DNA of 63,763 bases, counting the filler, from Collodictyon triciliatum (lineage: Eukaryota), in assembly GCA_043381765.1 (NCBI GenBank). It is 7 parts of 7 records of this genome, joined end to end, with 100 filler letters (N's around TTAATTAATTAA, not from the genome) between each part and the next. Parts side by side here need not be neighbours in the genome. Positions count along the whole stretch, not along the records: positions 46,297 to 57,864 come from JBHJMP010002365.1; 6 more parts are not named here. One strand, given 5' to 3'. A program made the translations under genes and the position numbers. Below, piece after piece: positions 11,986 to 62,723 of the stretch. Each line of letters starts with the position of its first letter. Position 1 is the stretch's first letter. Below the pieces are notes generated by a model. The model worked only from the letters and a program-made list of their open reading frames with translations. It ran no database searches and was not told the DNA's origin.

Positions 11986-23072
<11,087 letters not shown>

Positions 23073-23829
23073 AATTAATCCATTTTGCTCCACTGTCTGT
23101 TATTCACACAAAAAAAAAAAGGAAATGAAAAGGAAAAAGAGAAAGGAAAAAGGAAAAAGGAAAAAGGAAAAAAAGAAAAAAGAAAAAGGAAAAAGGAAAA
23201 AGGAAAAAGGAAAAAGGAAAAAGGAAAAAGGAAAAAGGAAAAAGGAAAAAGGAAAAAGGAAAAAGGAAAAAGGAAANNNNNNNNNNNNNNNNNNNNNNNN
23301 NNNNNNNNNNNNNNNNNNNNTTAATTAATTAANNNNNNNNNNNNNNNNNNNNNNNNNNNNNNNNNNNNNNNNNNNNTTTTTGTTTTTGTTTTTGTTTTTG
23401 TTTTTGTTTTTGTTTTTGTTTTTGTTTTTGTTTTTGTTTTTGTTTTTGTTTTTTTGTTGGGAATCTACAACCGCATGCTTTTCAATGAAGAAACCAAAAG
23501 GAATAAATTGAAATGTTCCATAAATTTCGGGTTTTGCGAATCACATTTTGATGGGACGAAGTAAAATGTTCATTGAATTTCAACTTTAAAATATATTCCT
23601 TCGCAGTTGCTTTCAATTTCAATCTAACGTTCATCAGAAAAATTACGTTCGATTTGGGATGTCAGTGAATCCCGCCACACGGAAAAATAAACACCCAAGT
23701 TTTGTTTCTTTGTGTGTGCAAGACAAAATTTCCAAATGTTGATATTTTCTATACCTCACAATATGAATAAATGTGGTCATCACACTTGGGAGACAGAGTT
23801 GGGATGAGCAATTAAAAAATCACAATGAA

Positions 23830-24950
23830 TAAGAAAATTTTTATGTTTTGCAGAGAAACTTCTATAAGAACAAACAATACACCATGTCATATTACTCCAG
23901 ATACTGCGTGTTTGATATATCTATTAGTACCAACTGGGAAAACATTATTACTGAAGAATATATCAGGATGCAAAGAGACCTATGGGATAGCTTCTTTGAA
24001 ATGAAGAGAGTCTTTCATCAAAGAGACTACAATTTTTAATGCATGATACATACGGCTTGGCTATGACATTACTGTTTGAAAAGAAAGGTATTTCAATTTC
24101 AAAATTCAAATAAAATGAAAAAAAACTAAAATATGTTTATATAGATGAACCTTCCGAAGAGTAGCTATCTTTATTAGCGTCAAAAAAAATAGTTGGAGTG
24201 GACGCAGGCAAGTTTAATTTGGTTTACGTGGTGGATGAGACAGTTAAGAAATTACATTACACGACACACCAAAGAAGACATGATAGGAAATCTCTTGAAA
24301 ATCACAAAATACACTTGCGCGAGAAAGAAAAGTACAATTTTTCAGGGATATGCATAGCAACGGGTTTACAAAGTGTTATTTCTTTTGGTCTCAGGACTTT
24401 TGAAGAGAATCAGCAGTTTGAGACATCAAGAGCATCCTTAATCGATTTAGAGATAGAACTGAGTAAACATAATTCATGCACGGTCGATTATGATAAAAAT
24501 TCTAAAATATGTATCTATGAAATTAAGATACCAGATAGAATTATCCAGATTTTATGAACAAGTAACTTTTCGAAAGATGAGATGGAGATAGTATGTAAAT
24601 ACAAAAAGAAGCAAAGAATTGTTTATGGACCGAATCGAAAAGACATATGGCAAGGATGTTGTGTTGGCGTATGGAGACTGGAACAGAAAATCTCCGATGA
24701 AACTCCTTATGCCATTAATCGGGAGAGGATTACGAAAAAAAAAAAATACTATCCAAACGTTTTGAAACAGTTAGTGTGAATGGATTAAAAACCTCCAAGA
24801 TGTGCTGCAACTGCGAAAAAGAACTGGAATATATGCGACTGAAAGGGAATTCAATAAAGGTGTATAGATGTCTCATGTGTAAAGAGTGCAATCGCTCAGA
24901 AAGCAAACAAAGTGCACTCTTGACAAGGGACTCTAACAGCGCTTAAAAAA
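23830..24950 (+). mobile_element. Degenerate Fanzor1 (eukaryotic TnpB-like RuvC nuclease) pseudogene, N-terminally truncated
   Basis: Intronless. Joining frames gives RTNNTPCHITPDTACLI..LLKNI..LWDSFF..KRVF..DYNF; RuvC-I KIVGVDAGKFNLVYVVD..LHYTTHQRR; LSKHNSCTVDYDK; FRKMRWR; KTYGKDVVLAYGDW; GRGLRK..LSKRFETVSVNGLKTSKMCCNCEKEL; VYRCLMCKEC; RuvC-III TRDSNSA. Several stops and frameshifts. Confidence 0.88.
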
Positions 24951-34660: not shown

Positions 34661-35113
34661 AGTTTACTATGCAGCATCATTTGTTCAAGTATGCAAGAAT
34701 GGATTTTTTTTTTAATATTCTTTTTACTCTGCCAGCTTTCAATTTTTTTAGTCCAGCAAATTGTCACTTTTATTTGATGCAAATATTATAATTTGTGGCG
34801 TTATAAGTCAATATCCATGTCTGTCCTTTTGTTTTGTTTTGTTTTGTTTTGTTTTATTTTATTTTGTTTTGTTTTGTATGTATGTATGTATGTATGTATG
34901 TATGTATGTATGTATGTATGTATGTATGTATGTATGTATGTATGTATGTATGTATGTATGNNNNNNNNNNNNNNNNNNNNNNNNNNNNNNNNNNNNNNNN
35001 NNNNTTAATTAATTAANNNNNNNNNNNNNNNNNNNNNNNNNNNNNNNNNNNNNNNNNNNNAAAAATTTTTTAAAATTTTTTTATTTTAATTTTTTTATTT
35101 ACATATATATTTT

Positions 35114-35184: not shown

Positions 35185-38100
35185 AGAATATCTTTCTTTG
35201 CCGTGGGTTCATTGTCATCTCTTTTCGCTGCCATCACTGTCGGAATAAACGATAAGGACAGCTACGCCACTTTGATCGCTTTATCGATACTTATACTCCC
35301 CGTGGGTGTAGGGGCATACCGACTCTCAGGTTCTTGATATGTACCATATAAATCCGGAAAAAAAACTACATAAATTTGAAACTGCTTTACATTTTTAAAA
35401 ATCATATGATAACCAATCTCTTTCTAAATAAAAAATTGATATATTTACCACATAGGGAGATATTTTAGGTCGCTTTTCAAAAAAGTGACGACGCTGAAAG
35501 ATCCAAATAATCCCAAATCTTTTCATTTTTCCAACGAGTTTATGGTCGAGTTTGCGACTAGAGCCTACTTGAGAAAACCAGACGAATCCGAGGTCATGCC
35601 ACATGAGTACGATCTATTCGATGTCTAAACGAATACGATATTCGACCATCTCAAAAATACGACTATCTAAATTAAATATATAATACATCACCATGAACAA
35701 CAGAAAGCTAATTAGGTCATTCAAAATAGGGTGGAAGTTGTCAAAAATATGTACAAAAAAGGAATGGAGCGATTTCCACGGTCTGCTGCAGTTCGAGTTC
35801 AATATTCTCTCTTTCTTATCGCATTTTCACCTTCGTCTATCACTACAGATGTTAGACTTCTAGTTGTTGAAGTAAACCCTATTTATATTAAACAACAATT
35901 GCCAATCTAAAACTATATTTCTAGCCTTTTAATTATTTTTTGGAATGAATTTTTTAATTCTGGAAAATCTCAGATGATGAAGATGAAGAATATCATTTTC
36001 GACGTCCGTTTTTTGGTCTTCAATCTCCGTTCTGTCTGGCAGCAAGATATGGAAACAAGGGGACTGGGTCATAGAGGAGGACTTGATCTCATAAGTTATA
36101 TTTACTTCAAAAAGAACTTTGCTGTTGCCAAGCACTACCATAGAGAGGCAAGGAAATCCCTATTTTCATTTTGGAAGTCATTACTGAGACCGCACGTGTC
36201 CCAAGCGCAGTTGGAATCTCAGGTATCTGACTATCGACTTTCTTTACAAAATTAAACAGTTATTTTCGCTTCATTTTCTCACACTGCAACACCTACCGTT
36301 TTTTTTTTTTTTAAAAAAAAAAATCGTGTTTAAAGGCTGAAGAATTCGACAGAGTGGAACAAATTTCGCTCAATGCGTACGAAGACCTGCTTTCAAAATA
36401 CTTCAATAGCCCAGTATTTTATTACTTTTTTTTTATAAAAAAAAACAATACCAGTTTATTGTGGTCCGCAAATGAAACTTTTTTTTTTAATAATGCCTAC
36501 AATTAGATTTTTTTCCTTTTGTTTCAATGATTCATTATTTTACTGTCGACTTTTTTTTTCTCAGGAGACCAGTGAAGTAGTCATCTTTTTGTTATGCATA
36601 TATAGAATGCATACTATATTGAATATAATTTTCAAACAGGACTTACTTCGAAGCTATGGCGGATTTTGGCTTGATGTTTATCGAGATACTAACCTTTCAA
36701 ACGTTTGCTTCGCCATAGCTGATGAAATTGAAGAATACGAAAACAAGGTCACTCTAACCATTTTACATGCTCAATTAATTATGCAATATTCGATTGAATA
36801 TATCTCATGACATCACAACAGAAAGGCTTGCAGAGACACCGCCGGTCATTGCAACATCCTTCTGGTAATGAGAACCCTGGTGGTTATAAATCTGATGCCG
36901 ACAACGGAGCATCTGGAGATGATGATGATGAACACAAGTCTAAAGTAAAGTGAGTAAAGTTTTTTTTTTGAAGACCGAATTTGTGACTTAAAAAATCAAT
37001 TGAATATAGACTAAAAAAATGACTTTGAATTTTTTTTTTTGTATTTCTAATCCTTTGTTTTAAAAGATTTTCCATTCATTTTTAATACATTTCTTTTTAA
37101 TTGATAGATCCGACTACACGACATCCTCATCTGGGAAGAGCCGAGAGAGAATAAGAAAGATGAAATTCCACTTGGATAGAATACGCAAACAAAATGATTC
37201 ATTTGAAAGCAAAGCAGTTAGAAATTTTTCCTATCTGCTTTATTTTCTGCAAATGCTATTATTTGGTATTCCTCTTGCAGGTATGAATAATTAATAAATG
37301 ACACATGTGCATACCTTTTTGAAAACAACATGATTTGAGTTTAAATAAGACTATCCTTAACAATAATATATCCAGCAATCATATTATTCATGTCCCTTCA
37401 CCTGAAGCTTCTTCATAACCAAAAGCAAATAAACATGAACCACGAACAAATTTTTATCGGAAATGTACTTTTTTATTTATTTATTATAATGAATTAAGTA
37501 ATATCGAATACCTTCTTGCTTATGATTTCAGCCCTTGGTAGATAAACAATCTCCCTTCATTATCCAATCAAAAAAAAAAAAAACATTTAGGAGGTCATGT
37601 ACACAGCCCAATCTTTTGGTGTCCTCTCTGAGTCAAATCTAGTTACACATTCAAAGTATTTTTCCTGTGTTAATTCCACAAATTGCATGGACGAGTTGGC
37701 AGATTTGCAACAGTACTCTGTCGATCTTATGGAAAATTTCCACCAATCACACGTAATACTTTATTTCTGATTTGACATTACCTTTGATTTCCCAGCATTC
37801 CTATTATACTAAGTTGCACTCCACATTTTCTTCATGTGTCAGACAAATACGTTCGAATTGTTACTCAAGTATCAAAAGTCCATCATTGATGCGTGGGTTG
37901 AACCCCACCTCACTCTCAATGTCTTCTACGGGGCAAGTCAGTGGATATCTAGAAGATTCAGTTTGTTAGATATGAACGACTTTCTTGCTGGTGATGCAGA
38001 GAGCATATACATCGACCCAAGTACAGAAATCCTATACGAGACTTATAATTTTGATTTCAATGGTTATTCTATTTTGCAGACATATGATTTCCCTATTTTT

Positions 38101-40871
38101 TAAATATTCTAATCAATTTGAATGCTTCATACAATTGTTTAAATTGCTCTTCCAGACCCATTGTTGGATTGGAAAGACGACAGTCGATATGTATTTTGCA
38201 CGGAAAATTCCATCGATATTGTATACCATGGATATTTCTTTGTCTGCCAATCCCAAATTGACCACGCCAATGACCTTATTGGCGAGTAAGAACTAGTTTC
38301 TTGTATAACGTCCATGACACTTCATCCAGCCATCCTGTTATAACCACTCAATATTTTGCCTGTTAGATTCTTGAATAGTTTCATATATATGATGGGAATC
38401 GGCTTTGGATTTTTCTTCATCGCGTTGATGTTGTGGAAACCAGTTTACAAAATAGTTATCAACGAAGTTTCTTCATTAAGATTCCTGAAGCTCATAAAGA
38501 AAGAAGGTATATATAGTTGAAAAAGTAACTGCTTCACCTTCTTCAATCCATACGAATATGTGCTAATACCTCGATGAATGGCTTTATTGAAAGACTATAA
38601 TTAAAATTTCGTTACATATTTTTAGATGTTCAAAAAATATGCACTCTCTATCGATATGTGGAGAAATCTGATGATGAAGAGGAAGACAGTTCTTTCAAAG
38701 AGGAGAAGGCGCGCGACGTCAACCAACGAACAAAATTCAGACGAACAGTTTTAATTCTTGTTATCACATTGGCCATGTGCGGAGTATATGTTCTAGCGTT
38801 CACCTCAATATATTCTTCCATCGGGTTTGATTTAAGTTCAGAAATTTGATGATTGTCATTTTATTTTATTTCAACCACACGATTATTTTTCTTCAGGTCA
38901 GAGTGTTTGTTTTTTTTTTTTAAAAAAAAAATAATCATTTAATTGTTTTTGATGTAGTGTTTCATATATATAAATATAAAATTATTTACATAAATTTATT
39001 TATAATTTTATGGACTAGCTTTCCCTTTCAGTTGATGTGAGATGATAGTAAGGCTTAAATTGTATAAAAATCGTTCTATAGACCAGATAAAGTTTTAAAC
39101 GATGCCGGCATTCGAGTGTCCCTGACATACCTTAGTAGCCAGGCAACTCGTTCACTGTTACTTAGACCTCACGAAGTTACTGAGACTGAGCAAAACCGTG
39201 CCCTCGAGATACTGGATGTAATTTATGATTTCATTTGTGAAGCGAATTATACATGTATCAATTCGTTTACATCAAAACTCATAAAAGTCGGTGCCATATG
39301 GTGTCATTTTGCAGTTTACGGCAAATCTGTTTCTGAAGATTAATAAATAAATAATCAGCGCCTGCAGAAGGTTCATGACAAGCTCGTCGATGCAGAGAGC
39401 TCTAATCAACAAGCAACTTTACTTTTTGATTTATGCCCTGGTCTACCACCCCCTGGAATGTATCAGAGAATGGCCAACCATATAGAACACCTCCGCGCTG
39501 TATGAGCATAAAATTGAGCATAACCATTTATTTAAAATTTAGTATTAAAGCCCAACAAATTCAAGATGTATTATTATATTCCCCCTCTTCCCTCCAAGTG
39601 AATCTATTATTTAATAGAAAATAAAAGAAGCGTAACCTATCCTCAAATAGGTGATAATTTCTTCGAGAAACACCCCCTTCGACGAGCGTATCGCTATCGC
39701 TGCAAACTTTTCCTTGACACATGAGAACGATAATTTTATTCAGTGTCTGAAACGAAGCAGGGATATTCAGTATAACGACGCAAAAACAGAGCTCATATCA
39801 TCGTTCATCGCCTTGAACGCCTATTATTGGATCATATGGCCAATATTCTTCGTTTTGACAGGTAAAACACTGTACATGTTGTCTTTATTCTTTTCCTTTT
39901 CTTTTCTTTATTTTTATTTTTATTTTTATTTTTTTACTTGTGCGATAAAAGTATTAGTTATGAACTTAAGTTGTTACTCAGCAGGAGTGATGCTAATCGA
40001 AATCTAACGTTAAGGATGGAGCCTTCCTATCGGGTTCCGAAAGAAGGTAATAGGAGCAAGCTCTCGCTCTAGACGAATATTGAAGATGCTTCCCCAGGAG
40101 ATCATCCAGAAGTACCGAGCGATTGGTGAATTCATGACCGAAAAAGGATTTATCGATGGCATTAATCTCGATGACAACGGCCAACAACACAGCGAAGGTA
40201 AGTACTTTTTTTTTTGATTCACCCAAGAGCCACAAATTTTTGCGTGAAGCAATCAATGATTTTAATCCGTCAAAAAACGGTATACAAAACTTAAGCGCAA
40301 CTTTATCATGACACCCACCTTAACACAAATCAAACCGATAACAGAACACAATTCATCTGGGAGCGATTATGAGTCTGATTCCGACTCGAGCACGAGCTCT
40401 GATTCTCGTTCAACCACAAGCATGTCCAGGTCTACGTCCGAAACAAAATCCACACGGTCGTCGAAGAGAAAATCGAAATCGAAATCGAAATCGAAGTCAA
40501 AGTCCAAATCAAACGGGAGAGCAACCAAAGCGAAGCACGCAAAGGCCACCAAAGATGCTGTCCCAATCGAAAACGATGATGACGGTGCTGACGAAAAAGA
40601 TAAGCTTTTGCGGCAAGATTCAGACTTGCTTGGTGCCCAGCCTCAGGCCAAAGGCTCTTCGTTCAGAGACGTCATCATGAAGACGCTGATGAAGCAGTCA
40701 TCATTGATTGAAGAAACGCCCATCCAGCGGCCTTGCGTGGTATGCAAGAAGCGCCCAAGGGAGATTCTGTTGAGTCCATGCGGTCATTTCTTGCACTGCT
40801 CCACATGCGCAAAGCCTCTGACGTCTTGTTCCGACTGTAACAAAAGAATCATTCGAAAGGAAATCATGTGA
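35185..40871 (+). CDS. TmcB/TmcC-like multi-pass membrane protein with C-terminal RING-HC finger; 5' end missing
   Basis: VEFATR, YKKGMERFPRSAAV, LDLISYIYFKKNFAVAKHYHREA..FWKSLL, YEDLLSKYFNSPDLLRSYGGFWLDVYRD..ADEIEE, several TM exons, RRILKMLPQEII. An in-frame splice 40197->40345 leads into an exon ending CVVCKKRPREILLSPCGHFLHCSTCAKPLTSCSDC. Confidence 0.78.
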
Positions 40872-41348: not shown

Positions 41349-44300
41349 TTATGGTTCGGGAAGAGCCCTGCGGCAAGTGGGACATTCATACTTGATGGCC
41401 ATCCACCGCTCTAAGCACAACGGATGGAAGACATGTTCGCAAGGGGTCACCTGGTATCATTTACACCCTTCTGTTTAGTGCACAGGTCGCTCACCAGATG
41501 TACAGCAGTTTTGTAAGTATGTAAGTATGTATGTATGTATGTATGTATGTATGTATGTATGTATGTATGTATGTATGTATGTATGTATGTATGTATGTAT
41601 GTATGTATGTATGTATGAATGTATGAATGTATGAATGTATCGAAAGAGCTATATCCTATTGGAACTGCTGGGCAGCAGAAAATACAGTACCATATACTCG
41701 TTTCGGTCGGGGGACACTGGGGCCATGCAAATAACGCACTCTGACTGCTCGTTCTCTACAAATTCGATTCGTCGATGATAGTCATACTTTTCGGGCAAAA
41801 ACTGCAGAGATAAGCACGAGTGTAAGAATTAAGTAATGCGTGCAGTCTCAGCGAACTATAAAACATGAATATTTGGTATATTGGCAAATGAACTTCAGTT
41901 GAAAAAGAAAGGGTCATATACATGAGAAAATCTAGCATGCGGATGTTTGAAATAAATAAATAAATAAATAATGAAATGGGCTTGGTTAGAATATGAAATT
42001 TTTTTTTACTATTTTCGGGATGCATGCGCGTGGACCAAGGTAGTCTTGAATAAGAAGTATGAATGCTTGGCCAAAGACGTATCTTGTATATATAATATGA
42101 ATGAAAAGAAATAACAAAAAGGGTGTTATCGAATGTAAATAACAGTAACTACAAAAGATAATTTAGTAACGGACTTCTTTTTTTTTTTTACACGAAAAAA
42201 ATTGTCAAGTCGTATCATCGAAACAAATTGACAGAAGAATTATACATTGTTAAAAGCGCAAGGAATGATTGGTCTGGCTCAATTTCCAATATGTTATGAG
42301 GGCATCCAAGGAAATCTAATTCATAAGTTATTTTGAATAGGCAGATGTTATTTGTAAATTTGGGTTTGACGGTTAGCTTCCAACAAAGCTTAAAAGCGGC
42401 AGAAAAATAAAGAAAATCGATCATAAAATAATAAATGGAAGTTGTAGAAATGAATGAAAAATATTTTTAATTACAAAAAGGAATAAAGAGACGTGTGGCT
42501 GAAATTCCGATTATGTAAGACCTATCGATACAAATGTTAAACCATGTGGAAATCCCATGTGCCCGATAAGTTTTGTATCATTCACACAGGTATTCATAAA
42601 TTATATTTCATTAGAAAGTATATATTGAATGATTGTTCATAAATGTAATAGCTCTGTATCAAAAAAAATCTTACGGAAGCAGTGCCCTTCGACTATCTCG
42701 GTGGATATTTGATATGATTTGTGGAATCCAAAATGAATACATGATAAGAATAAACAGGTAAAACATCCCTTGCAACTTGTAGAAGAGAAATATTCCAAGC
42801 ATGAGAAATCCGTCTGTAAGGTTAGTTAGAATAGTGCTACAAGAACTGCAAATACTCAGAAAATAAATGCCGATATAGAAACTTACAAAATCTTATGTAC
42901 AAAAAGCTCAACTCTTGTCTCCAAGATTCAATCCCTTGACTAAATATTTGTGGTCTTCTTGCTTTCCAGATAAACAACAAATAACGCATCTCATATATCG
43001 AAAAGATCACAAACATGAAGAAAGCCACAGTCGAAAATGCATTAAAGAGCGGATCTAGATTGCGCGATCAAATTATATCACTTATCATATATGCAGGTAA
43101 TAAGTGGCAGTATTCTTTGCATAATTAATAAATTCATGATGACTACAGTGAACATATGTAAATGAGATGACCATATATATATGTAAAAAAAAAGAGAGAG
43201 AAACAAACATAGCAACAAAAAACAGATAAAAATTATAGATACAGATACAGATACAGATACAGATACAGATACAGATACAGATACAGATACAGATACAGAT
43301 ACAGATACAGATACAGATACAGATACAGATACAGAGAATCAGACATATAACCAACCAAAGACTATCCCAACTGTGAGATGAATCAAGCACAAGTATGAGT
43401 CGACAATCGCCTGTTGTCCAACGGTGAGCATGGACACCTTGGATGCCCCCTAAAAACTCAGTAAATTAAATAGTTGATACAGCAGTCGACTATATACAAG
43501 TGAAATACTAAGAGAGGACGTTGATTTCATGTTGAAATTATGATGCAAATTTTCGGCTAACTGATGGAGTTGATGAATATTCGAGTTGCTGTAGCAGTAT
43601 CAGAGCTTGAAAGATTGATGTCTACATAATAAATGATATATCGACCATATTTTAGTGATGTATCTGTTAAAATGATTGGAGGTTGAAGTTGATGATGATC
43701 CTTACACCAGTTGCAGCGATAGCATAGTTTATTGCCTTCGTGTAAAAAGTGTCTAATACAATCTGGTCCAGCTTCACAGCAAATTTATACTTGCAAACGT
43801 TGCTGTTCATAACACCACTCAACTTAACTGTATTAAGTACAGAAATACAAAAAACAATTAATAAAACAATAACGATTAGGTATTTTCTAAATCAAATTTG
43901 TTGGTGATATCGTTATACACTCAATATTAAGCATATCGATATTGGTCAGAGGTTTTTTTTTTAAAAAAAATAAAAATAAGAGATTTTTTTTCTGCCATTA
44001 GTTAGAGGACAGGGAGGAAGAAAAAATACCAGAAACAGATTACGCTGAGACATTACTAACTTGCTATTGTATTTGATACACTGGAGGAAAATATTATTTC
44101 GATAGGAAACATACCACGCTCAGACTCATTTAGCTTGTACGCAGAAAGAGTTATGTTATAATAACATCCCGTTTCTGGTTGGGAGTCGAATTGGTTGCGC
44201 ACTATCTCCTCTAATTTTTTTTATAAAAATTAGTATGACAATTTAAGCAGAGAAAGTCCTACTGTAATTTGAATATTTACATGTAATAACGTATCCAATA

Positions 44301-45598: not shown

Positions 45599-46384
45599 TG
45601 CTATACATCATTTACGATTATTTTCAGACGCTGACTTGTGTTGAAAATAAAAATGAATGTGAAAAGCTTTGGTTCTGGTTTAGCGATGCGATGATCTGGC
45701 ATAGAAAACGATGAGTTTTTTTTTTATTTTTTGCTTTCTTGTCTATTTTATCCCCCCTTTTTTTTTTTAGTTTTATTCTTTAATCTCAATTCCTTATTTT
45801 TTTATTCTTTTTCCTTTTCCTTTTTCTGTGTTCTTTTTCTTTTTCTTTTTCTTTTTCTATTATTTTTTCTGATTTGGTTTTTCCTGCCTCTGCTAATCCA
45901 AACAATGTCCTTTTACATAATTCATGCTTCAAGAAAAATTAATAATCAAATTACAAAGCCGAAGGAATATGTATATATACAGTCCGCTCGTGTTATGAAC
46001 GACATCAAAGGGTTCCTGTTGCCTCGTCGTTGTTTATTAAAACGCTGATATCGAGTCCGGAATACTCACACACAGATAAAAATAATAAAGCACAAAGCGA
46101 GGTCACAATCAAAGTTCTTCAATGAGCTTTATTTCGGCACGTACGAAGGCAGTGGAGTTCCCTCCTCAGAGAACTCGTTTTCTACAACCACATATGNNNN
46201 NNNNNNNNNNNNNNNNNNNNNNNNNNNNNNNNNNNNNNNNTTAATTAATTAANNNNNNNNNNNNNNNNNNNNNNNNNNNNNNNNNNNNNNNNNNNNGGAA
46301 GATGAGTTTGATAGTGAGATAAATGAAGTTGATGAAGGAAGAAGAGGTTTGGAGTTTGTTGATATTTCGTTTATGTATGAACAG

Positions 46385-46614
46385 CTTCACAAGACCGACT
46401 TTGATGCACTTATAGAACAGTACCCAAATGTTGGGATTAAAATTCGAGAGGTTATCTATCATTCCTTTTCTAAAATATTTACATCGTACATTATTTTATA
46501 ATTTAGATGATAATGACATAAATTATTCACGCATCCAAGGTTGCTCGAGAGAGAAATATGGAGAGAAGTAGGTCATTGATATTCCAAGCTCAACTTTCCA
46601 GTATTTCCGAGTGA
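46385..46614 (+). CDS. Last two exons of a cyclic-nucleotide-binding-domain protein (channel-type CNBD C-terminal helices)
   Basis: LHKTDFDALIEQYPNVGIKIRE|VARER matches the LxKxDFxxLxxxYP..I...A..R pattern. Canonical intron 46451-46539; stop TGA at 46612-46614. Confidence 0.6.
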
Positions 46615-47775
46615 GTCTATAATTGAAAAACCTCTATGATTTTGAAGTGTTTCTAATTTTTCTCATTTCGATAATCACTGTATTGCAACCATTTTTTAAA
46701 TCAGGGGTGAAGTCTCATTCTCATCGAAGCCCAATCTCAATCCCAAGCTCAACGATAAAACACGAAATATATCCATTTCCAATTTTCAGCACGTTATTTC
46801 AAATTCGAAATAAAACCAATTGGCCTTGTAGAAAATGAATCTTGTGCAAGTGAGCGTTCTCAATCGATGTGAATCACACTAGCAATATTATTACATGAGG
46901 TTATGACATCTTCCCACTCGAAAGAATGATAAGCCCAACGTTAGACGGTCGATTTACATTTTTTACATCGTTTTTATTGGCTATTGTGCTTATTAAATTG
47001 ATTAGGATTCGTGAATAATGTCCCATGAAATCTTGCTCCATTTGTCTATCTCTGCGCATCACTTTATTTCCTTTTCCCTTGCCCATATGTTCTGTTCAAT
47101 TTTTTTATTTTGTGTATTTTTTACCGGAAAATTTGAAGTACCTGCCTGAACTATTAATCGTGTTTGAAAATCGAAAACCATCAATCTCTTTGACAATTGC
47201 AACGTATAAGACTATGCTGTGTTATGTCATTACTTCCTTCATTTGTGAACAAGTCAGAAACTGACCATTCTACACACAAGCAGTTTTTTTAATAGCAGTA
47301 CGCTTCGGATTACCCATGGCAGAGATGATACACTCAACCGCCTGAGGCGAACGAAAAATCGCCACGTCTTGAAGATATCCTACATTCTCAAAGCCATGAT
47401 TTATTTGTGTTATGTTATTTTGATGGATAACGGTTGTCATTTTTACTACCCCTTCCGCTGTTTTATTGCCGCTTGATGTGGCTGCATGGGCGCTCCCAGA
47501 AAGGCCTGTTCAAGTCCGCGTTCGCATGCCTCATTAGAAAGTACCGTACTACCGTTGATGACAACTCTGGAAAATTTGATTTATTTGCCACTCAAGGGCA
47601 ATGACGCGATCCTGTGATCGTCACGCTTCCAGCTGCTCCGGCGTGTGCAATAGAAGCAGGCAAAAGCGATGTACCTGTCTGACTGATCCATCGGAAGCTT
47701 TCCATATTATCTGTCCTCTTTTTTCATTCATTCATTTAAATGTGCTTGTAGCCTTGCGCAAAGGTGCTGAAAACC

Positions 47776-47829
47776 ATGTCGCTGGCACAGGATGAGTCTC
47801 TGGAGTTGCGTACGCCTTTGTCTTTACAT

Positions 47830-47913
<84 letters not shown>

Positions 47914-50900
47914 TATGCGCATATTCCTCTGTTCACAAACTTCTTTTTTCCCTCTTCATTATGTTTTTGAATGAGATATACAAACAGTTTGCACAATATT
48001 TCATAATTTATTTTTTTATGAACACTTGATGTGTGACCACGACCACTTCACCAATACCAGTCTATTGAATGCCTTGGCGGGCAAACTGATGGAAAAAAAA
48101 TAGCGTGCCCTTATTTCTTCTTTTTCTTTTTGTTTTGTGCTGGCATCTCCGACAGTGGATGCGGAGCTAAACGAGCTGCAAAAGAGATTTCGTGCGTTAG
48201 AGGGAGACCGGAAAAACTACATTGAGGAGTCTCGCAACGTTCTTCGGAAACAGCGAATCGCACTTGAAAAGCTCAAGAAAGAGAATGAATACCTCAACGG
48301 AGAGCTTACTAGGGTAATTAACGGAGAAGGCGTTTGATTAGTTTCTTTCTGCTTATCAACACTGACGCCATGTTATTCTCTTTCTTTCATTTCCCCCCTC
48401 CATTCAACAAATTTATTTTGAAGGTTCAAAGTGCAGATTCAGAAACAGCCTCCTCCCAAAATCTAAGCCTTGCTATGACTCAAGTCCAAGAACAAAATCA
48501 TGGTCAGTTCTTACTTCACCCACTATTCCCTTCAAAACTTTTCACATATAACTTTTTAAGCCCAAAACGACCGAATGCAATTACAACTGATTGAGAAAGA
48601 TCAATCGTGACGTTTTTAACCTCACATACATTCCTAAGCTTTGGAAAGACAAATGGAAATTGAAAGAAGGAAAATAGACGACCTCATTAAGATGGAGAAC
48701 ATGATCAAAGAAAATATCATAACCCACAAGCAAGATACTGGTGGAGTCCATGCAGCTAGAGACACAAACTTATTAATTTTGAGACAAGTTAAAAGCATTG
48801 AGAATAAGCTAGATTTTGTAAGATTTGTACTGTTTTTGGGACAAATTGAATCCATGACATTTTGGTGAAAGGAAAAAAGGAACACAATAGATATATTCAT
48901 TTCAATGTTTTTATCTTATGAACCAAACAGGCTCTTCTGCGATTTAATGAAGCGTTGACTTACAATCGCCAGCTTCGAGAGAAAATAGACATGTTACGAA
49001 AGGAGAGAGTATCATTTGAAGGAATATACAAGAAACTTGAGAGGCAACTACTTGAAAAGAAAAAGGAGATGACAGAGCTTCTAGAAACGTCCAATACAGC
49101 ATATGAGCAGAGGTCAATTTCATTATCTCTGTTCTTTCTTTTTCTAGTCTTCCCACACTCCCATATTTCTTTTTAACCGATTATGAACTTGTGATATTTC
49201 AACGAAATATTGCAGAGATGAAGCCCAGGGCAGGATGATTCAGTTGAAAGAAAAGGCTGAAAAAGATATCATTCTTTACGAAGAGGAAATAAAGGAACTG
49301 AATCGTGTAATTGAGCAGGACCGAAAAATGAAAGGTTTCTTCCTTACCTTTTCTCAAACACCACGAGCTGGGGTTTGGTTAAAATTTAACTTCATCAATG
49401 CCAAAGCACTCATTTTTTTCATTTTGTTACAAACAAAAGAATTTATGAAGCAGAAAGAACCATCCGGTAGACTTTCTGTTGAGGAAAGGAAAAAAAGGCG
49501 TCAAAAGGGTATGTCGATAATTTTTTTTTATTAAATCCAACGAAAATTGATTAATTGGTGCTGAACTAGAACCCACTCTTTAGTAGTAAAGGTACTATTT
49601 TTAAAACACTATACGAATACTCAAACATGTTATCTTGAAGGATAAAAAAAAAAAGCTTATTCAAGCTCTACAAACAAATAGATGTATGGGAGTTTGTTAA
49701 TCCAGTGGCCCTGGCTCAATTGGAAAACGAAAGAACAAACAATATCGAAGTCGGAGTTGCCCGAGTTCTTGTATTTTTCAAACACTAAACAAAAATTTTT
49801 GTAACTCATCAGTGGGCCTGACTCTTGATGTTGTCGCAAACATAATTCAATATATTTTTAAAGGCGGCGACGGGGATGGGCGTGGATGAATTCGCTTCGA
49901 AATTCATCAAAACGGAACAATTAAACTTTGACATGTTCAATCAAGTCAGTGAAATCACGGGTGAAATAGAGAGACTTGAGGCTCAGGTATATTAATTATG
50001 TCCTTTACAGTTTCCTAGTTGCAAAATTATTCTTGACCCAAAAAAAAAAAAACAACAACAACAACAAGAATTAAAATACTCTAGTGTATACCAGCTAGTC
50101 TAATATGTCAAGAACTCATAATTGGACAGATTGCCGACACCAGGGCTGAGATTGAAAAGTTCAAGACGCAAGGGAGTGGCTCCGATAACCAGCATAAAAA
50201 GATCATTCAAGACCTCGGTCTGCTCTCATTTTTATATGTCCTCTTATTCTTTGATATCTCTTATCGAGGATCATTCCCGTGCGGCAGTCACTTTCTGAAT
50301 TGCAGCATGCATCCATGTATTTTTAGCTCGTTTCCCCTTTTTTTTCTGAGATTCACTAGACTTATAATTCATGAATAATTACGTATGAATCAGAGGATCG
50401 GTTGCAACGCATGAACTCCCGTGTGGAAAACTATGAGTCTAAGCATCAAGAAGCGTTGGGACTTTCTCCATCATACATGACATGGAAACATTCCATTATG
50501 CTTATTTCTAAAATTGCTATAAACCATTAGGATGGGTGTGATATCCACCATAAAGGCAGAAATCGAGGTCTGCAATCTCCTCAAATAACACATCATTTGA
50601 ATCAAAACTCCTCCGCTCACTATCATTTCCACAAACCAATCTGTTCCAATGCTTAACGTTACTACCATCCCAACAAGAATGCATTCAATCGGCTGGAGTG
50701 CGAACGAATCGCCCCAAGAAGTTTGGTAGAAGCTGGCCTTACCGAAGACAACATCGTTCAATATCTAGGTCAAATATTACTTCTTGACGAAAGCATTTGC
50801 ATGCTTACAAAACCAACGAAAATACCTTGTTTACGGCTCCTTTTAATTTACTTTATTTGTTTATATAGACTTACTTGACACCAAACATTCTAAATATAGG

Positions 50901-51437
50901 TATTGTGGAGCAGAGAGTCAACGAGATTATCCAAACTCACAGCGCGCTTCAGATTCGACCGATGGGCTCGGCGATGATTCCGGCCTCTAACGCGTCTGTC
51001 TCACAGACTCCAATGCCTCTCGCCTCCTCTCGTGTGATTGCACCCACACCGATGCCAGGAAATACTACAACGTGCAACAGCCCTGCATTCTTGAATGTTT
51101 CGGCCAACCTTCCCACAACACACAGCAAATCAGACTCGGAAGAAGACGATGATAGCGAAGATGAAATGCCCATGACAGTGGAGGCCATCAAAGCTAAAAC
51201 GCTTCAGAAGGTTGTCCACCATCCTGTTGCAATCAAAGAAAAATTGCCTTTCATTCTCTGTGCTTATATTGCAATAAAAAATAATTCCAGCTTTAAGGTT
51301 GCTTGCATCCATTCATTTAAAATACCTATGCGACCCAGATTAATAAGCAGGAATCCATCGTTCAAAAGAAACCGAAGTCGAGAAAAGAACCTGGAAATCT
51401 AAACATAAGTGCCAAGAATCGGACAGGAACGTATTGA
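47776..51437 (+). CDS. Outer dynein arm docking complex subunit ODA-DC2 (ODA1/CCDC114/CCDC63 family)
   Basis: ELNELQKRFRALEGDRKNY, GGVHAARD..IENKLD..FNEALTYNRQLREKIDMLRKER..F, SNTAYEQRDEAQ, FIKTEQLNFDMFNQV, NIVQYLGIVEQRVNEII; coiled-coil composition. Confidence 0.88.
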
Positions 51438-53083
51438 AACAATTCCCGTTTTCACACACTATGAACCATCAGCACCCCATTCCTGCTGTTGTACCCTTCA
51501 TTGTACAGCCCGCTCGCTGCATCACCCTCCTGGGCTGCTTTCATTCTCTTCTTCAATTGCCCTTTAACTACTCTCCTAATGTATGTGACATTTGCAACAT
51601 AATGGCAGTTGTGAATTATTCTTTGTCTCAATCTGGCCATGAATCTTCCATAAGCTGTTCGACGAGCCAATCAAACCCATTGCGAGCAGAACTGTTCCTT
51701 CGGTGCGTTGCGCTGATAAAAATATCATTTCAGGCAACAGTTTTTCTTGCCCTCAACACTACTCCACTGTATTTCCCAATCAAAAGTACAGGCAGCCTCA
51801 CTTTTTTGAGAGCTTGCGAATTTGTTGGTGATGGGGATAGCCACATGGATACCACAAATTAATAGGCTCTGAGGCATGGGCCCAGTTAATTGATTTGTAT
51901 GATTCGTGGGTTTATGGATAAACGTTGATTGATTGGTGTCATGATAACAGATTCTCAAACAAAATGAACTCGGCCTGAACTGAAAATCAGCGAGAACCCC
52001 ATCGTTTTTGAGATTTATTTTTTGTTCATGTTGTTCTGGTTGCTAGTCGTCAGAGATTGTGAGATTAAAACAAATGCTTTTATTTTTACCTGATTTTCGC
52101 GAACTCTATCTCCCGCTCTGAATCCTGTGGAAGTCATGGTAAAAGGACACAAGACAAAGCAGCAGTGGAAAGGGAACTGTTCGATCTGCTGCTATTACCG
52201 AGGAGAGAGGTGGTTGGATGGACGGCTCCTAGTTTTTCCGATGATATGAAGAGATGGTCTAAGGAACGATTTGTGGGGGTTGGGATGTGTTATTGTGTGA
52301 GAAACAGTAAGTCTCAATGTTGTCCATAAACTTCAAAACAACAAAAACAAAAAAGAAATCATTTCAATAATTCGATGTGTTAAAATTGAATGCAACAGAG
52401 CAGGTATGTAATGGCATAAACCATATTCAAAAGATGTGTATGAATTACTATTTTCATTTAGTATTTTTCGATTTTTATTTTATTCAAAGAAATCAGTATG
52501 CCGATGAAGCCATAAAATACAACTGTGTTTCTTCAGTGCAATTTTCTTTTGCTATTCATAACCAACCAACTTGATACATCACAGCGATATTCATTACCGC
52601 AAACTTCAGAACTTGTCTTTTCTATTTTATCAAAAAAAAAAAAACTCTGCAAAAGATGAGAAATTTTAATTCAATTACTCTATTTTGCTAGCTATGTCTA
52701 TTTACTATGAAACCGATAGGAGTCCCTGCCGAGCTGGTGACCACGTCTTCCATGGATGGAGTATCTTAATTAATACATATTCCCATACTATAATATCCTC
52801 TTTACTCAAGAGCAACTTTCCGCTCAAACCCGCTTCATGCCTCACAGTTTGTCACCTGCGGTGCCATCACCCCTACCCCCGACTCGGCCGGTAATGCACA
52901 CTCGGCAACAGCTCATCCTCTCCCACATCAATCGTTGCCTCGCTTCGGCTGCCCTTTTGTTGGTGCACGGCAAGGAGCATGAAGTGTTTTATTGAGATGA
53001 ATACCAACGCATGAATGAGATATTTATTGAGGCTTCTGCAACTGATTTTCTTTCTATTTATTTAATTCTTTCTTTCTTTCTTA

Positions 53084-53178
<95 letters not shown>

Positions 53179-53288
53179 TTTAGATATGCACTTATTCATC
53201 ATGAAATTGGTCTGGAAGGCTTTTCAAAATCGTCTTTTCTTCCTTGAAGTTAATATTTGAAGCTGAACCCAGCAATTTGAGTTCTACC

Positions 53289-55800
53289 ATGTCGCGCATG
53301 GGTTCGATCAGCATGTATACACGAGATGCTATGTCTACCACTATAGTTCCCAGTGAGTTTGGCACTCATTTTGACTGGTAGGGTGCCTATCAAGTGGACG
53401 CACTTATGTTTTCATCGATCTTTATTCCTTTTTTATTCTCTTTTCTGAATCTCTTTTTGATTCTGGTACTATCTCATGTGCCTCCTTCAAATGCATACGT
53501 GAATAGAAAAAATTTAATCATCATTCCATTTTCGCTAATTGATATTTTTCAGTAAAAGCAGAAACCAGACAGATAATTGCAGATCAAATGAGCATGACAG
53601 ATTTGGGCAATTATTCTATCAGTTATGGCTAACGAATCCCCAAACGTTACTGCCCTTTCTGGTGATACTGCCATAAATAATACGAAATCTGTGACAACAG
53701 AGACGAGTGCACCAAATCCTTATCGCATTTTCCGAGCTGCTTCCTTTTTGATTTTGTTGACTGTACCCCCCTTGACAGTTATGGTTTCCGGTATAAATAT
53801 GATTTCATCCATTAAAATATTGAATATATACATATTTCACTAAATAAATGTGGTTGTGTTAGCTTGTATCATGATTAATGAACTCCTTTTTTTCATGCTT
53901 TTCCATAGAGTAAGCTATTGCCTAGTTCCGCTCATATGTTTCCAATTATTTTTAAAATTTGATTCAGGCGAATGTTTGTTTACATTTAATCATAAGTATA
54001 TCATGAATTTTCTTGATTATTCCTGCATTTAAAAATGAATAGATTCTATCCGTAGATGCTGATGTGAGTTCATGATTTTACTACACCTACGGGTGTATCT
54101 TATCCAATTTAATCAGCTTTATGATTTTTTGGGAGTACAAACAGATGAAAAAAGAGAGCGGAAATTCCATTTACATCCAGTCTCTTTAAGTGATGCTGAT
54201 GATATCTGCCGTTTTCTTTGATATTCTGTTCAGCATCTCTGTCTTGATTGATATTCAATGATTTGGTATTTATATCATGATATCTCCTCACAATTATGAC
54301 TTTGATTCGGATCGCTTATGAAGAAGATTCATCATAGTTTGCCGTAGTTGTTACATCCCGTGATCTCATTTTAATTTATTTAATTTAATTCACATTGAAA
54401 TTTCAATGTAAGATTGTAGCAGGGATGTGTTACATTCGCCCAGATAACTCAATTCCCAATTTTTGCATCCATATCATATATCTCTCTAATGTCTCTGGAT
54501 TTGGAACTATTTATGTCACCTTACATATAAAATGATTTTATATGTGGTTCCTGCCATGTCAGTGTCAACAAAAATATGTTATTTGAAATTTACATAATGG
54601 TTCATACTATACATGCTCCTTCGGATGGAGCTGTAGTTGACTCATCTCGATTCGTATATACGACATTATTATGCTTCTATTTTTCTAATGGCAATAACAT
54701 CCTTCGTTTATGTTCCAAAACACAACGGCGATGAGCAATTTTATGCGTGTTGGTTTGAAAAAAGTATATTTTGATTTTTCCAGGTTATCTCATATATATA
54801 TATATACTAAATTATTTTTCATTTTTTCGATTCAAAGATTTGTATATTAATATGACATGCACTTGTATAATAGTTTGTTTCCTGCTCACTTATTTTTTGA
54901 CAGATGAACTTACATATATCAATTTTTAGGGGACGGCAGTACCGAGCGATTTAACGAGGAACCTAAAGATGAGGTCATGCGGTTGTTGTTTTTGTCTGTT
55001 CCTTTGATGTTTTACTACTACATCTCTCTGGAAGTTACAGGCTTGGGCCACCATAGGCTTGAGAACTCGAAAACTGACTCACAGTATGTAACTTCGTATG
55101 CAGCTTCCAAAGAACATTATAAATTCCATAATTTCAAAACATGGTACTTCTATATTGAAATTACACCTCTTGGAAAATACCTAGGTTTTGGGCAAGTGTT
55201 AGCCTCTCTATTATTGTATTTTGGTAGAAGAAAATGGTCTGTTTGTTTTTTAGAGTTCGAGGAAAAGAAAATTACATATTCGCAGTTTGTTTGAAAAGTC
55301 TATAAGGCTCCACACAAACCTCAAGGATGTTCTAGGAAATCTTACGAGGCAAACTGTGGTCTTTGGCTAAAATTAACTATTTCAGTTAACAAAATACTAC
55401 AAAAGTTCATAGAAGACCCACCCGTTGATTTCTTGTGTTTCAACAATATGATTATATGAAATCTTAAAAAATCTATTACATGACTATACTTTATTGGATT
55501 GGGCGCAATATACCTCATCTATGATAAGACTGATGATGAAAATATGACAACAGCCAATTACTATGTTGTCCGTTTGTTTGCGCTGAGGGTATCCATCAAA
55601 GGTGATTTTAACTAAGCCAATATGACGGCTCCACATGGACAACTAAAGAACTACACATGTAATACAAGATAGAAAATTCACTTTTGTTGATAAATGTAGC
55701 GTTTCCGAGTTTGATTACGTGGTGGATTAAAATGTCCAAACCCAGTCCAAATAATCCAATCACACTTGAAGAGCTCGCTTTATTGTGTAGGTTTATTTAT
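53289..55800 (+). pseudogene. cAMP-receptor-like (Dictyostelium CAR-type) 7TM GPCR, probably degenerate
   Basis: TM-like exons in GPCR order: FRAASFLILLTVP (TM1), LMISAVFFDILFSISVL (TM2), GCVTFAQITQFPIFASISYISLMSL (TM3), YIRHYYASIFLMAI..YACWFEK (TM4/ECL2), LLFLSVPLMFYYYISL..RL (TM5), FWASV (TM6), AFPSLITWW (TM7). In-frame TAA at 54187 and TGA at 54259. Confidence 0.5.
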
Positions 55801-55999
55801 GTTGTGATTCATTTATTTCCAGAAAAACGTTTCTCTGCTGAAATACTAAGATTATTCTCCATATTGGGTCAATAATTCATATTTAGCTCTCGCAAAGACT
55901 GTGCGGATTGATATTATTAATTCGTGTTGTAGTGCATCCGCGAAACCGCTGAAGTTAGTTTTGCATATTTTTTCTTCTGATTTTTAAATTAATTTTTTT

Positions 56000-57740
56000 G
56001 CTATTCACTAACGATGCAGTACCGAATAAATTCCCCTTTTATTGACAGATGACTGTAATGCTGGATGATTATACACTATTTGTGTTTCCAAATTGCAGAC
56101 CGACCTGTATTATTCCAGAATTTGAAGAAGCATTGTATCCCGACTACTCAAATTCGTCGCTGTAGTCACTTCGAGTCGTTTACTAACGAATAGCAAAAAG
56201 AGTCGGTGTTTTCCAATATGTTTCCTCACAATCCAATGGATTAACAGCATTTAATGTATTGGATGCCGTGCATTGTTGTTGATACACCGCTTTGTTTGAT
56301 GCACAAAACATACCCTTTCCTGAGTAAGAAGTTATAACGTTTGTTGATGCAGGAACTAATGCAGCAGCGCCAGTAGTAATATTATCTGTTGCGACTCTAT
56401 TAAAGTTGACTTGGCCAATCATTTCAGCTGAGGTATTGTATCCTAGCGCTTTCATGAGATATGTAAGCGACTCTGGACTGTAATTATTGCAAACGCCAAC
56501 AACTCCGCTAGTTAACAGTCCATTCTTTGCTGAAATAGCAACAGAAGGTTGGTTAGCTTATCCCGCATTTGTGAATTGTATTGGCACAGACGGCTGAATT
56601 TTACCATTAATGGTAAGCCGAGACTGAGACAAGCCCTCCGGAAAGTGAAGACGGTCCGTACCAAGATATGTTGCATGACCAGTCTCAACCTCCTGAGTAA
56701 AAATAGAATAGACAGCATTGATATTTAAGCACTGCACTTATATATTTTGATTGGAATGGCCTGAAAAATTTCAAGCAATAGGAAGCTGTGTTACGAAATA
56801 AGTCTCAATAGGAATCTGCAAATTGTTGGATACAAGATATTGAATTAGAGCATTATTATACGATGGTTCTGTTTGGATGTAATTAATATTCATTCTAATG
56901 TCTGAGAATCGATACTGCAAATTATTTAATGAAGAACCTACTCAGGTATTATAATCAAAAGGTGTTGCAGTAGCAGCTATAGGAGATGTTAATAACCTTG
57001 CGTGAATAAATCAGATGAAGGTGTCATCCAATTACAAATTTTAAGCGTATTTGGGCCTAGAAGATAAGCCAGCAAAAGTGTTTTAATATTCATCAACCCA
57101 AGGTATCGCAGTGGAAAAGCAATCTGTAATTTAGCAGATTTTGCATTAGTTGCATTTAATCCAGTCGGATGCGTTTCAGCCCCCAACAATAATGCTTTAC
57201 TTCGGTCCAAAATAGATTGTGAAAGTCCCATACTACCCGACATTAAATTACACCAGTTAGCATTGTTACAATAATTGTGCTTGAAGCTCTCAAGGTAGTT
57301 ATAGTTGTCTATGCGTTCGAATTCACTTCCATCGGGATATACAACAATACGATATATCATACTTTCCCAACTTTCAGCTTGAGCTAAAATGGGATATCTA
57401 ATTAGCTGTCCTGCAGTTACAGGTAAAACTGCTTCACTTGCTCTTAAATATTTTACAAATGATGTTGATTGATTTCCTATGGCATTGCCTGCATCAGTTA
57501 CAAAAAGCAAGGGATCCACTTGTTCGCATTGTATGTTTCCAGTTATCCAAGCACTGTCCATTTGAATGCTCCACTCATTGTCAATGGGAACCCTAAAAAC
57601 AATTTGAGGGCCAGATGAAAAATTTACAACTTGCTCGGTTCCGTTTGACGAAGAACATGTCTTTGCTGTTTTTCAAGGATAGTTTTTTTCTTGGATGAAA
57701 TATTTCTAAACTGCAGTTCTTCGGGTAGTGAGTCCATCAT
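56000..57740 (-). mobile_element. Endogenous Polinton-like-virus major capsid protein gene (pseudogenised)
   Basis: Intronless, roughly 570-codon frame with stops and frameshifts: MDSLPEELQF..SNGTEQ..PQIVFRVPID..SMIYRIVVYPDGSEFERIDNYNYL..IAFPLRYLGLM..YRFSDIRMNINYI..LQIPIETY..RLTINGKIQPSVPI..ESLTYLMKALG..FAI..SGYNAS..IQVGLQF. This motif order is typical of PLV double-jelly-roll capsids. Confidence 0.72.
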
Positions 57741-57766
57741 ATTTTTAAAAAGAAAATAATTTTCGC

Positions 57767-57864
57767 TTAGTAACCTATTTTATTTCGAATGTTGTCGTCG
57801 TATGATTTTATGACTTTTCCCAGGGATTCATTTTTTTGTCCAGCTCCACGAATTACAGGCTCAT
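57767..57864 (-). CDS. 3' end of an intronless ORF immediately upstream of the capsid gene (probable viral gene)
   Basis: EPVIRGAGQKNESLGKVIKSYDDNIRNKIGY stop, co-directional, ending 26 nt before the capsid ATG; cut by the contig end. Confidence 0.35.
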
Positions 57865-58639
57865 NNNNNNNNNNNNNNNNNNNNNNNNNNNNNNNNNNNN
57901 NNNNNNNNTTAATTAATTAANNNNNNNNNNNNNNNNNNNNNNNNNNNNNNNNNNNNNNNNNNNNAGGCAAAATGAAAATCCAAAAAAAAAAAAAAAAAAA
58001 AAGGAAAATGCAATTTCTTTCTGGATGTCTATTCCTTTAACAGGCAATTAGATGGCCTCTGCAGAACATTTCCCAAGGGAAACATATCCACAATGCGGCT
58101 GATTACCGGCAACCTTCATCAGGAAAAAGGTGTTTGATCATCAGTCTGCGGCCGAGAAGCAAAAACGGCTCTTGTGGAACTCGGTACTAGGAGCAAGGCT
58201 CACAGAGTATTGCGCACCATCTATCTAGAAGGCATAGGCGTTTGATTGTTGTGACAGAAAAGAAAGAAAAGAGGAGAAGAAAACAAAACAAAGCAATATC
58301 GGCTCTGATCGGAGTAACGTGAGCAGGAAAGAGAAGAGATGGGAGAGTTTGGAGTGTGATATTAAAAAAAATAATAAAAAAAAAAAAAAAAGAAGAAAAA
58401 AAGGTGGATAGGCTGTGATGATCCCTTCCCACCTTTATATTCCCTCTCTTTTCTTTGCCTGCATATTGCACACCTGTCAAAATATAGCACAGTAGCTTGA
58501 TGGGGATTATGAGAAAAAAAAAGATTTTCTTCTCTTGCTGATTGAAGGGTGCACTTAGTTCAGCACGACTAAAAGCTTTTATTCACTTTTGTGTACTGCT
58601 TGCAATCTGACTGGCTTGTGTTAGGAACGAAGCTCCTTG

Positions 58640-62362
<3,723 letters not shown>

Positions 62363-62723
62363 GTAGCTTTATTTTCAGGCATTACAAGGTTAAAGCTCCT
62401 AATTGCAATCAATTAAGAGAATAAAAGACATAATTTGATTCATCGATGACATCTTTGTTGTTTTCGTTTTTTGATTTTTGATTTTTGATTTTTGATTTTT
62501 GATTTTTGATTTTTGATTTTTGATTTTTGATTTTTGATTTTTGATTTTTGATTTTTGATTTTTGANNNNNNNNNNNNNNNNNNNNNNNNNNNNNNNNNNN
62601 NNNNNNNNNTTAATTAATTAANNNNNNNNNNNNNNNNNNNNNNNNNNNNNNNNNNNNNNNNNNNNAGAACCCGTACAAGAAAGTGCAAATCAAAGTCAGG
62701 GCGAGGCTCTTTCGTTCGGGTCT

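Follow-up and report, generated by a model that had tools for sequence, protein, structure and literature searches.

A probable remnant of an endogenous Polinton-like virus capsid gene in a Collodictyon triciliatum genome assembly

Introduction

The question raised by the DNA described here is whether a broken, gene-sized reading frame, found at the end of an assembled piece of the Collodictyon triciliatum genome (assembly GCA_043381765.1), is what is left of a virus that had integrated into this eukaryote, or whether its damage and its position were produced during assembly. The whole stretch that was analysed, referred to below as the window, is 63,763 nucleotides long, filler included, and the frame lies on its minus strand between positions 57737 and 56054. 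It had originally been predicted, from the nucleotide sequence, to be the decayed major capsid protein (MCP) gene of an endogenous Polinton-like virus (PLV). PLVs were reportedly described by Yutin et al. in 2015. Our analysis indicates that the locus is probably a dead, doubly truncated fragment of such a virus. The prediction had also called PLVs common endogenous viruses of protists, and this agrees with the literature: endogenous copies in protist genomes were dealt with, together with the viruses, by Bellas and Sommaruga 2021 (PMC7805220), and a screen of all protist assemblies recovered PLV and virophage capsid genes in very large numbers, according to Bellas et al. 2023 (PMC10120064).

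The capsid-gene fragment

A metagenome scan returned nine related loci (L001-L009), all of them partial contigs of 1.0-5.2 kb, and the 605 amino acid MCP encoded by L001 was compared with the window by tblastn. This revealed an intronless MCP frame of ~1.68 kb on the minus strand (57737-56054) that was colinear with residues 1-562 of the L001 protein, and the match between the window and the MCP of an intact relative (E = 0) was far beyond chance. The alignment was made up of three pieces: 57737-57651 corresponded to residues 1-29 of the L001 MCP (93% identity), 57672-56995 to residues 23-248 (78% identity) and 56995-56054 to residues 249-562 (77% identity). Translation of 58300-55700 in three frames also showed a single gene-sized minus-strand frame that passes through three reading frames. 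The fragment (56054-57737, minus strand), which was recognised by tblastn, by alignment and by the fold of a relative, consists of three frame pieces with nine in-frame stops, and its C-terminal ~43 residues are gone.

Each of the two frame breaks was a single-base difference in length relative to intact relatives. The first was located at 57645-57655 (minus strand) from the change of tblastn frame, and a metagenomic contig differed from the window at 57649; the second was located at 56990-57000 (minus strand), with the frame change at 56995 and a metagenomic contig differing at 56994. An intronless, decayed frame of about 1.7 kb with frameshifts near 57655 and 56990 had been predicted, and these features were recovered, with the shifts now placed at ~57649 and ~56994. 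Between the breaks lies the longest remaining open stretch (56992-57672, minus strand), which runs for 227 codons from stop to stop, or 190 from its first ATG, and corresponds to the N-terminal jelly roll (MCP residues ~23-248).

Homology to the MCP ended at 56054, and the DNA beyond this point, in the same gap-free piece, was unrelated. The last 43 residues of the MCP are near-invariant in the family; when the window was searched for them with a profile, in six-frame translation, no score exceeded 0.9 bits. A weak resemblance to the C-terminus that had been seen by eye at ~55870-55960 was dropped on account of this score. The loss of the 3′-end of the capsid gene did not form part of the original prediction.

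Signs of decay

All nine in-frame stops (2 TGA, 5 TAA and 2 TAG) were found in the last piece of the frame, which represents the C-terminal 314 codons. Eight of these aligned with W, R, S, Y, W, S, L and E in the relatives and the ninth lay past the end of the homology. A variant genetic code was considered and ruled out because TGA, TAA and TAG face six different residues in the relatives, and for the same reason the stops represent decay rather than recoding.

Substitutions pointed the same way. In an alignment of 18 sequences, 25 of the 239 family-invariant columns were altered in the window, two of them to stops, compared with 2/259, 1/258 and 1/235 in three intact relatives from outside the alignment. 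The three relatives nearest to the window share the same residue at 469 sites, and at 61 of these the window has a private change; the like count for those relatives was 22, 9 and 11. The copy shows signs of lost selection and, as it stands, would no longer serve as a virus gene. With two frame breaks, nine stops, changes at invariant sites and the loss of ~43 residues, the copy in the window cannot make a capsid protein.

Homologues and predicted fold of the capsid family

When the open N-terminal piece was used as the query against a collection of 5.8 billion proteins, 19 of the 1472 candidates were retained at E <= 1e-3, with E-values ranging from 1e-30 to 1e-114. The best of these homologues, P0003, showed 82% identity over 99% of the N-terminal piece. 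The homologues were 579-632 amino acids long in 18 of the 19 cases and none of the 19 had a Pfam domain or a name. A HMMER scan of 1.84 billion cluster representatives (clustered at 50% identity) found only eight proteins at E <= 1e-3, so the capsid family is rare in current data. Scans of IMG/VR with P0003 and with alignment A1 recovered zero relatives, and the INPHARED phage records, searched by tblastn, contained zero matches. A sequence search of the PDB produced chance matches only (E 0.38 and 1.2), and no match to the Pfam models Sputnik_MCP or MCP_V20 was obtained with either the window pieces or the eight relatives.

As the closest intact relative, and one that is 82% identical to the N-terminal piece of the window, P0003 was modelled with AlphaFold2 (AF2) from the 18-sequence alignment. 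Foldseek comparison of this model with the PDB gave 227 matches at E <= 1e-3, and the top matches listed were all double jelly-roll (DJR) MCPs with a probability of 1.00. They included the capsid proteins of Singapore grouper iridovirus (SGIV; 3.4e-11), mavirus (4.5e-11), Emiliania huxleyi virus 201 (EhV-201), Paramecium bursaria chlorella virus 1 (PBCV-1), Sputnik, African swine fever virus (ASFV; p72) and faustovirus. Foldseek comparison with BFVD returned capsids of virophages, adintoviruses, adomaviruses and giant viruses, and in the ESM Atlas P0003 was nearest to a capsid cluster of nucleocytoplasmic large DNA viruses (NCLDV; score 0.96). By its predicted fold, the family is one of double jelly-roll MCPs (Bamfordvirae), with two jelly rolls per chain in the P0003 model. 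The absence of this fold had been named beforehand as grounds for giving up the capsid assignment; it was found, the model matching DJR MCPs at E ~1e-11.

Gene neighbourhood of the intact relatives

Assignment to the PLVs was based on the genes that accompany the MCP in the related loci. The L006 contig carries, in order, a 240 amino acid Pox_A32 gene, a 144 amino acid gene and the capsid gene. The 240 amino acid protein is an A32-type packaging ATPase (PF04665 Pox_A32, E 3e-13, 50.2 bits against a cutoff of 22.8). On the opposite strand, L006 encodes a replication protein of at least 736 amino acids with a DUF5906 superfamily-3 helicase-type domain (E 6e-16), the N-terminal 336 residues of which matched nothing in Pfam at E <= 1 and so showed no primase domain.

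Three genes come after the capsid gene in L002: a lysine-rich one on the opposite strand, one for a 291 amino acid protein and a fibre-like one. The 291 amino acid protein (2797-3672 of L002) was modelled with AF2 from seven sequences (predicted local distance difference test score, pLDDT, 70) and the model matched viral pentons: PBCV-1 (Z 13.1), the adenovirus penton base (Z 10.2), mavirus (Z 9.6) and Sputnik (Z 8.5). Comparison of the same model with BFVD gave the mavirus minor capsid protein (E 3.5e-10). According to PMC11161782, a capsid protein, a penton, an A32-type ATPase and a replication protein other than the protein-primed DNA polymerase (pPolB) make up the PLV pattern. The gene set of the relatives is thus supported as a PLV module. 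No protease was found among the genes of L001, L002 and L006, all of which are partial contigs.

The gene directly after the capsid gene on the opposite strand, at 2251-2763 of L002 and 2050-2454 of L001 (both minus strand), is lysine- and glutamate-rich and has a conserved end, NPYL.QLVRGR; it had no Pfam match.

The upstream gene tail and a conserved motif

In intact relatives another gene stands before the MCP gene, and part of it is retained in the window. The 3′-end of this gene, 31 codons and a stop, occupies 57767-57864 (minus strand), where it is cut by a run of N. By tblastn, 57862-57770 corresponded to residues 114-144 of the 144 amino acid protein of L006 (84% identity, E 2e-13). 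The order in which the 144 amino acid gene is followed by the MCP gene is common to L001, L002 and L006. The co-directional open reading frame (ORF) ends at a TAA stop at 57768-57766, and its other end runs into the N run at 57865.

From this stop there are 25 nt to the first ATG of the MCP frame (57740) and 28 nt to the ATG that is the start codon in the relatives (57737). The end of a co-directional ORF had been predicted 26 nt upstream, together with an AT-rich start; the distance holds, at 25 or 28 nt depending on which of the two adjacent ATGs is counted, and the start context of the MCP frame is indeed TTTTAAAAATATG, at 57750-57738 on the minus strand.

The upstream gene and the start of the MCP frame are separated by a short AT-rich spacer (57738-57766, minus strand), which also holds a 13-nt motif, AAAATTATTTTCT, at 57763-57751. 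This motif was identical in the window and in eight aligned loci, in all eight of which it lies just before the capsid start codon. It was present exactly once per locus in 9/9 related loci (L001 182-194, L002 419-431, L003 382-394, L004 558-570, L005 107-119, L006 3652-3664, L007 884-896, L008 836-848 and L009 330-342) and once without a mismatch in the window (57751-57763, minus strand). No copy was found before other genes of L002 or L006. Judged from the sequences, AAAATTATTTTCT is a candidate late promoter element of the capsid gene. It is intact in the dead copy in the window although the capsid proteins are only ~60% identical across the loci.

Relatives in lake metagenomes

The share of the words sampled from 54800-57864 that was present in a public sequencing run was 0.10 at most. 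Twelve runs, from 11 studies, shared words with this region and were mostly freshwater or lake metagenomes, with no RNA run among them. Four metagenomes were aligned to 54800-57864 at a likeness of at least 85%, and this revealed short contigs that cover 56457-57864 at 90-100% nucleotide identity (42 differences in 629 bases for record 17; 0/151 for each of records 4 and 21). Metagenome contigs differed from the window by one base in length at 57649 and 56994, which are exactly the two frame breaks, and had another base in two stop codons (at 56773 and 56739). Sequences of the lineage in which the frame is unbroken at all four sites are therefore present in lakes today. Cover of the host flank (54800-56054) by the four metagenomes was not meaningful and supports no conclusion.

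Between 57062 and 57650, contigs from two freshwater studies were identical or near-identical to the window (0/151, 0/151, 1/151 and 4/234 differences), and one of them shared a window-specific change at an otherwise invariant residue. These contigs could represent the same endogenous copy in wild hosts or a close free virus.

Linkage to host DNA

The capsid fragment and its upstream tail (56054-57864) are located in a single N-free piece, 46297-57864, that also carries a spliced ODAD1 gene. The exons of ODAD1 (ODA-DC2) at 48922-49531 on the plus strand matched Pfam PF21773 (E 1.7e-19 and 1.7e-12) and are separated by a GT-AG intron of ~105 nt, so that the predicted position of the frame on the same contig as the spliced ODA-DC2 gene stands, the contiguity of the piece being that of the assembly. 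The GC content did not change across the join at ~56054, being 0.34-0.38 on both sides. Flank ORFs had no usable Pfam match at E <= 1, and an ESM Atlas search with an ODAD1 exon returned clusters labelled Ciliophora, Chordata and Rotifera, which said little about the host. No repeats marking the junction were found, the only repeat being an unrelated one of 96 bases (53105-53200 and 47834-47929). The window as a whole is eukaryote-like, with a GC content of ~0.26-0.47 per kilobase, long microsatellites and spliced genes.

The viral part lies at the very end of the piece, where it is broken at 57864 by an N run. This run is part of a 100-base linker (57865-57964) composed of 44 N, TTAATTAATTAA and 44 N, which hides the upstream sequence. 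The rest of the element had been predicted to lie beyond the contig break; in the window, nothing viral was found past this linker. Identical linkers were found at six places (11592-11691, 23277-23376, 34961-35060, 46197-46296, 57865-57964 and 62566-62665) with a spacing of 11.2-11.7 kb in four of the five intervals; a further three N runs, of 159, 532 and 86 bases, have the appearance of normal sized gaps. Separate scaffolds may have been chained together to form the window, in which case sequence past a linker need not be a true neighbour, and adjacency across linkers should not be relied on.

Evaluation of alternative explanations

Under the preferred reading, the locus is what remains, dead and truncated at both ends, of an endogenous PLV: a small virus with double-stranded DNA, from a freshwater PLV lineage, would have integrated into the nuclear DNA of an intron-bearing, cilium-bearing eukaryote. 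The assembled piece would keep 31 codons of the upstream gene, the conserved spacer and capsid codons 1-562, and after integration the copy would have drifted without selection, acquiring two frame breaks and nine stops and losing its last ~43 residues. We infer that the viral DNA was joined to that of the host by integration, not misassembly, that the damage arose biologically and not as an assembly error, and that the virus lineage infects this host or its ancestors.

Several results weigh against this account. The PLV label rests on relatives that are 55-87% identical, there being no other viral gene in the window: a tblastn search with ten proteins of L001, L002 and L006 found the MCP and the upstream tail only, and a Pfam search of 111 of the 113 window ORFs of at least 75 amino acids (the two inside the capsid frame being left out) found host-type families only, with no integrase or polymerase. 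Neither an integrase nor terminal repeats were seen in the window or in the partial related loci. The window pieces had zero matches in Pfam (E <= 10) and PHROGs, and only one of the eight relatives, P0023, approached a Pfam capsid model (Capsid_N, E 0.0088, 16.1 bits, under the 24-bit cutoff). The AF2 model of P0003 was of low confidence (mean pLDDT 57, predicted template modelling score, pTM, 0.60), and its Foldseek template modelling (TM) scores were, as is usual for such a model, modest, at 0.3-0.5. No reads supporting the host-virus junction at ~56054 were present among the runs compared. A codon-position test against L001 with three outgroups gave 19/21/25 for the window and 12/10/20 for L001, a difference that was not significant (p 0.56) because L001, at 72% nucleotide identity, is too distant. 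The stops are also unevenly spread, with none in the 227-codon N-terminal stretch and nine in the C-terminal 314 codons; this may be due to chance, to a mosaic assembly or, least likely, to retention of the first jelly roll. Lastly, stops in endogenous PLV capsid genes are often assembly artefacts, as reported by Bellas et al. 2023 (PMC10120064).

The last of these points leads to the most serious alternative, which we consider unlikely: that many near-identical and possibly intact PLV copies were collapsed into a false consensus, making the stops, the frame breaks and the end at 57864 artefacts of assembly, and that the real element could be complete or even inducible. There is precedent in the same paper (PMC10120064), where stops in a chrysophyte endogenous viral element, produced by the collapse of near-identical copies, vanished after polishing, and where capsid genes tended toward short or broken contigs; the piece analysed here likewise ends inside its viral part. 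The uneven distribution of the stops would fit, as would the metagenome contigs that differ from the N-terminal half at 0/151 (records 4 and 21) or 1/151 (record 6) positions. The mixing of real variants, however, seldom yields stops, and here there are nine, of three kinds, facing six types of residue. Indels are few (two) relative to substitutions, unlike raw long-read error, several of the 25 changes among the 239 invariant positions are radical, and the last 43 codons are absent, with unrelated DNA in their place in the same piece. It is doubtful, and about as improbable as a collapsed consensus, that this host carries further intact copies of the freshwater PLV lineage and that the damage seen here is in part an assembly artefact. 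If it did, a capsid family recorded so far from lake metagenomes only would be linked to a host for the first time, the element might by analogy be an inducible provirus acting against a giant virus, as in Cafeteria and Tetraselmis, and the 13-base motif upstream of the capsid gene would be a late promoter.

It is much less probable that the assembler joined free or contaminating virus sequence to host DNA. The viral part does occupy the extreme end of the piece, and the aligned metagenome contigs cover only that part, yet a virus that replicates would not have its capsid gene cut short and interrupted by nine stops and two frame breaks, and the GC content is steady across the join. Least credible of all is that the open N-terminal stretch (190-227 codons, the first jelly roll) was retained as a host gene while the rest decayed. 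In its favour, stops are absent there, as against nine in the next 314 codons, and stops account for none of the 23 private changes in the N-terminal piece as against seven of the 36 in the C-terminal piece. Private changes, on the other hand, are as frequent in the open stretch as in the decayed part (12.8% and 13.8%, respectively), nine of the 25 changes at invariant positions fall within it, and the first frame break severs it from the region of the start codon.

Comparison with known systems

The loci related to the window resemble PLVs in carrying a DJR MCP, a penton, an A32/FtsK-type ATPase and a superfamily-3 helicase (S3H) protein instead of pPolB. As with endogenous PLVs, the relatives occur in freshwater metagenomes, and the capsid gene of the window carries stops and frameshifts and lies where a contig of a eukaryotic assembly ends. 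The capsid family differs from PLVs in having no Pfam model or IMG/VR match, and no integrase, terminal repeats or full genome were seen.

Virophages such as mavirus and Sputnik, which form the class Maveriviricetes (PMC11161782), have MCP and penton folds that match those of the relatives and a morphogenetic module of the same type. No Ulp1-type protease was seen in the short, partial related contigs, and the Sputnik_MCP and MCP_V20 models were not matched; the structural scores of the relatives against virophages were no better than those against giant-virus capsids. Polintons/Mavericks and animal adintoviruses also have a DJR MCP, a penton and an ATPase and are integrated in host genomes, but the window and the related loci yielded neither pPolB nor an RVE integrase, and L006 has the S3H protein. 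The MCPs of Nucleocytoviricota (PBCV-1 Vp54 and iridovirus MCP) were the best Foldseek and ESM Atlas neighbours, and P0023 weakly matched Capsid_N; the similarity in sequence is nevertheless under the Pfam threshold, and both the gene neighbourhood and the contig sizes of the relatives (<= 24,938 bases reported) fit a small virus, not a giant one.

The fragment probably links to a host a capsid family that is otherwise represented by unnamed proteins of freshwater metagenomes, and it adds to the evidence that ciliated eukaryotes were infected by PLVs in the past. It leaves the general picture unchanged: capsid genes of endogenous PLVs have been catalogued by the thousand in protist genomes, and many of them contain stops and lie on broken contigs (PMC10120064).

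Other features of the window

A (TGTA)n microsatellite of 228 copies with a 99% match occupies 13832-14740, and shorter TGTA runs flank the N run at 10015-10173. A 130-codon open frame at 24165-24554 (plus strand) contains GVDAGKFNL and had no Pfam match at E <= 1; the motif resembles the first RuvC motif of TnpB/Fanzor-type transposon nucleases. Fragments of host genes identified with Pfam, which may be of use in placing the host, were a guanylate/adenylate cyclase (8262-8486), IML1 (16039-16275), a TmcB-type TPR protein (35911-36252), a C3HC4 RING protein (40266-40868) and a DUF2921 transmembrane E3 ligase (42840-43067), and further host matches in the window were to EF-hand and dual-specificity phosphatase fragments. 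The TmcB and DUF2921 families are those of protists and plants, in keeping with a protist as the likely host.

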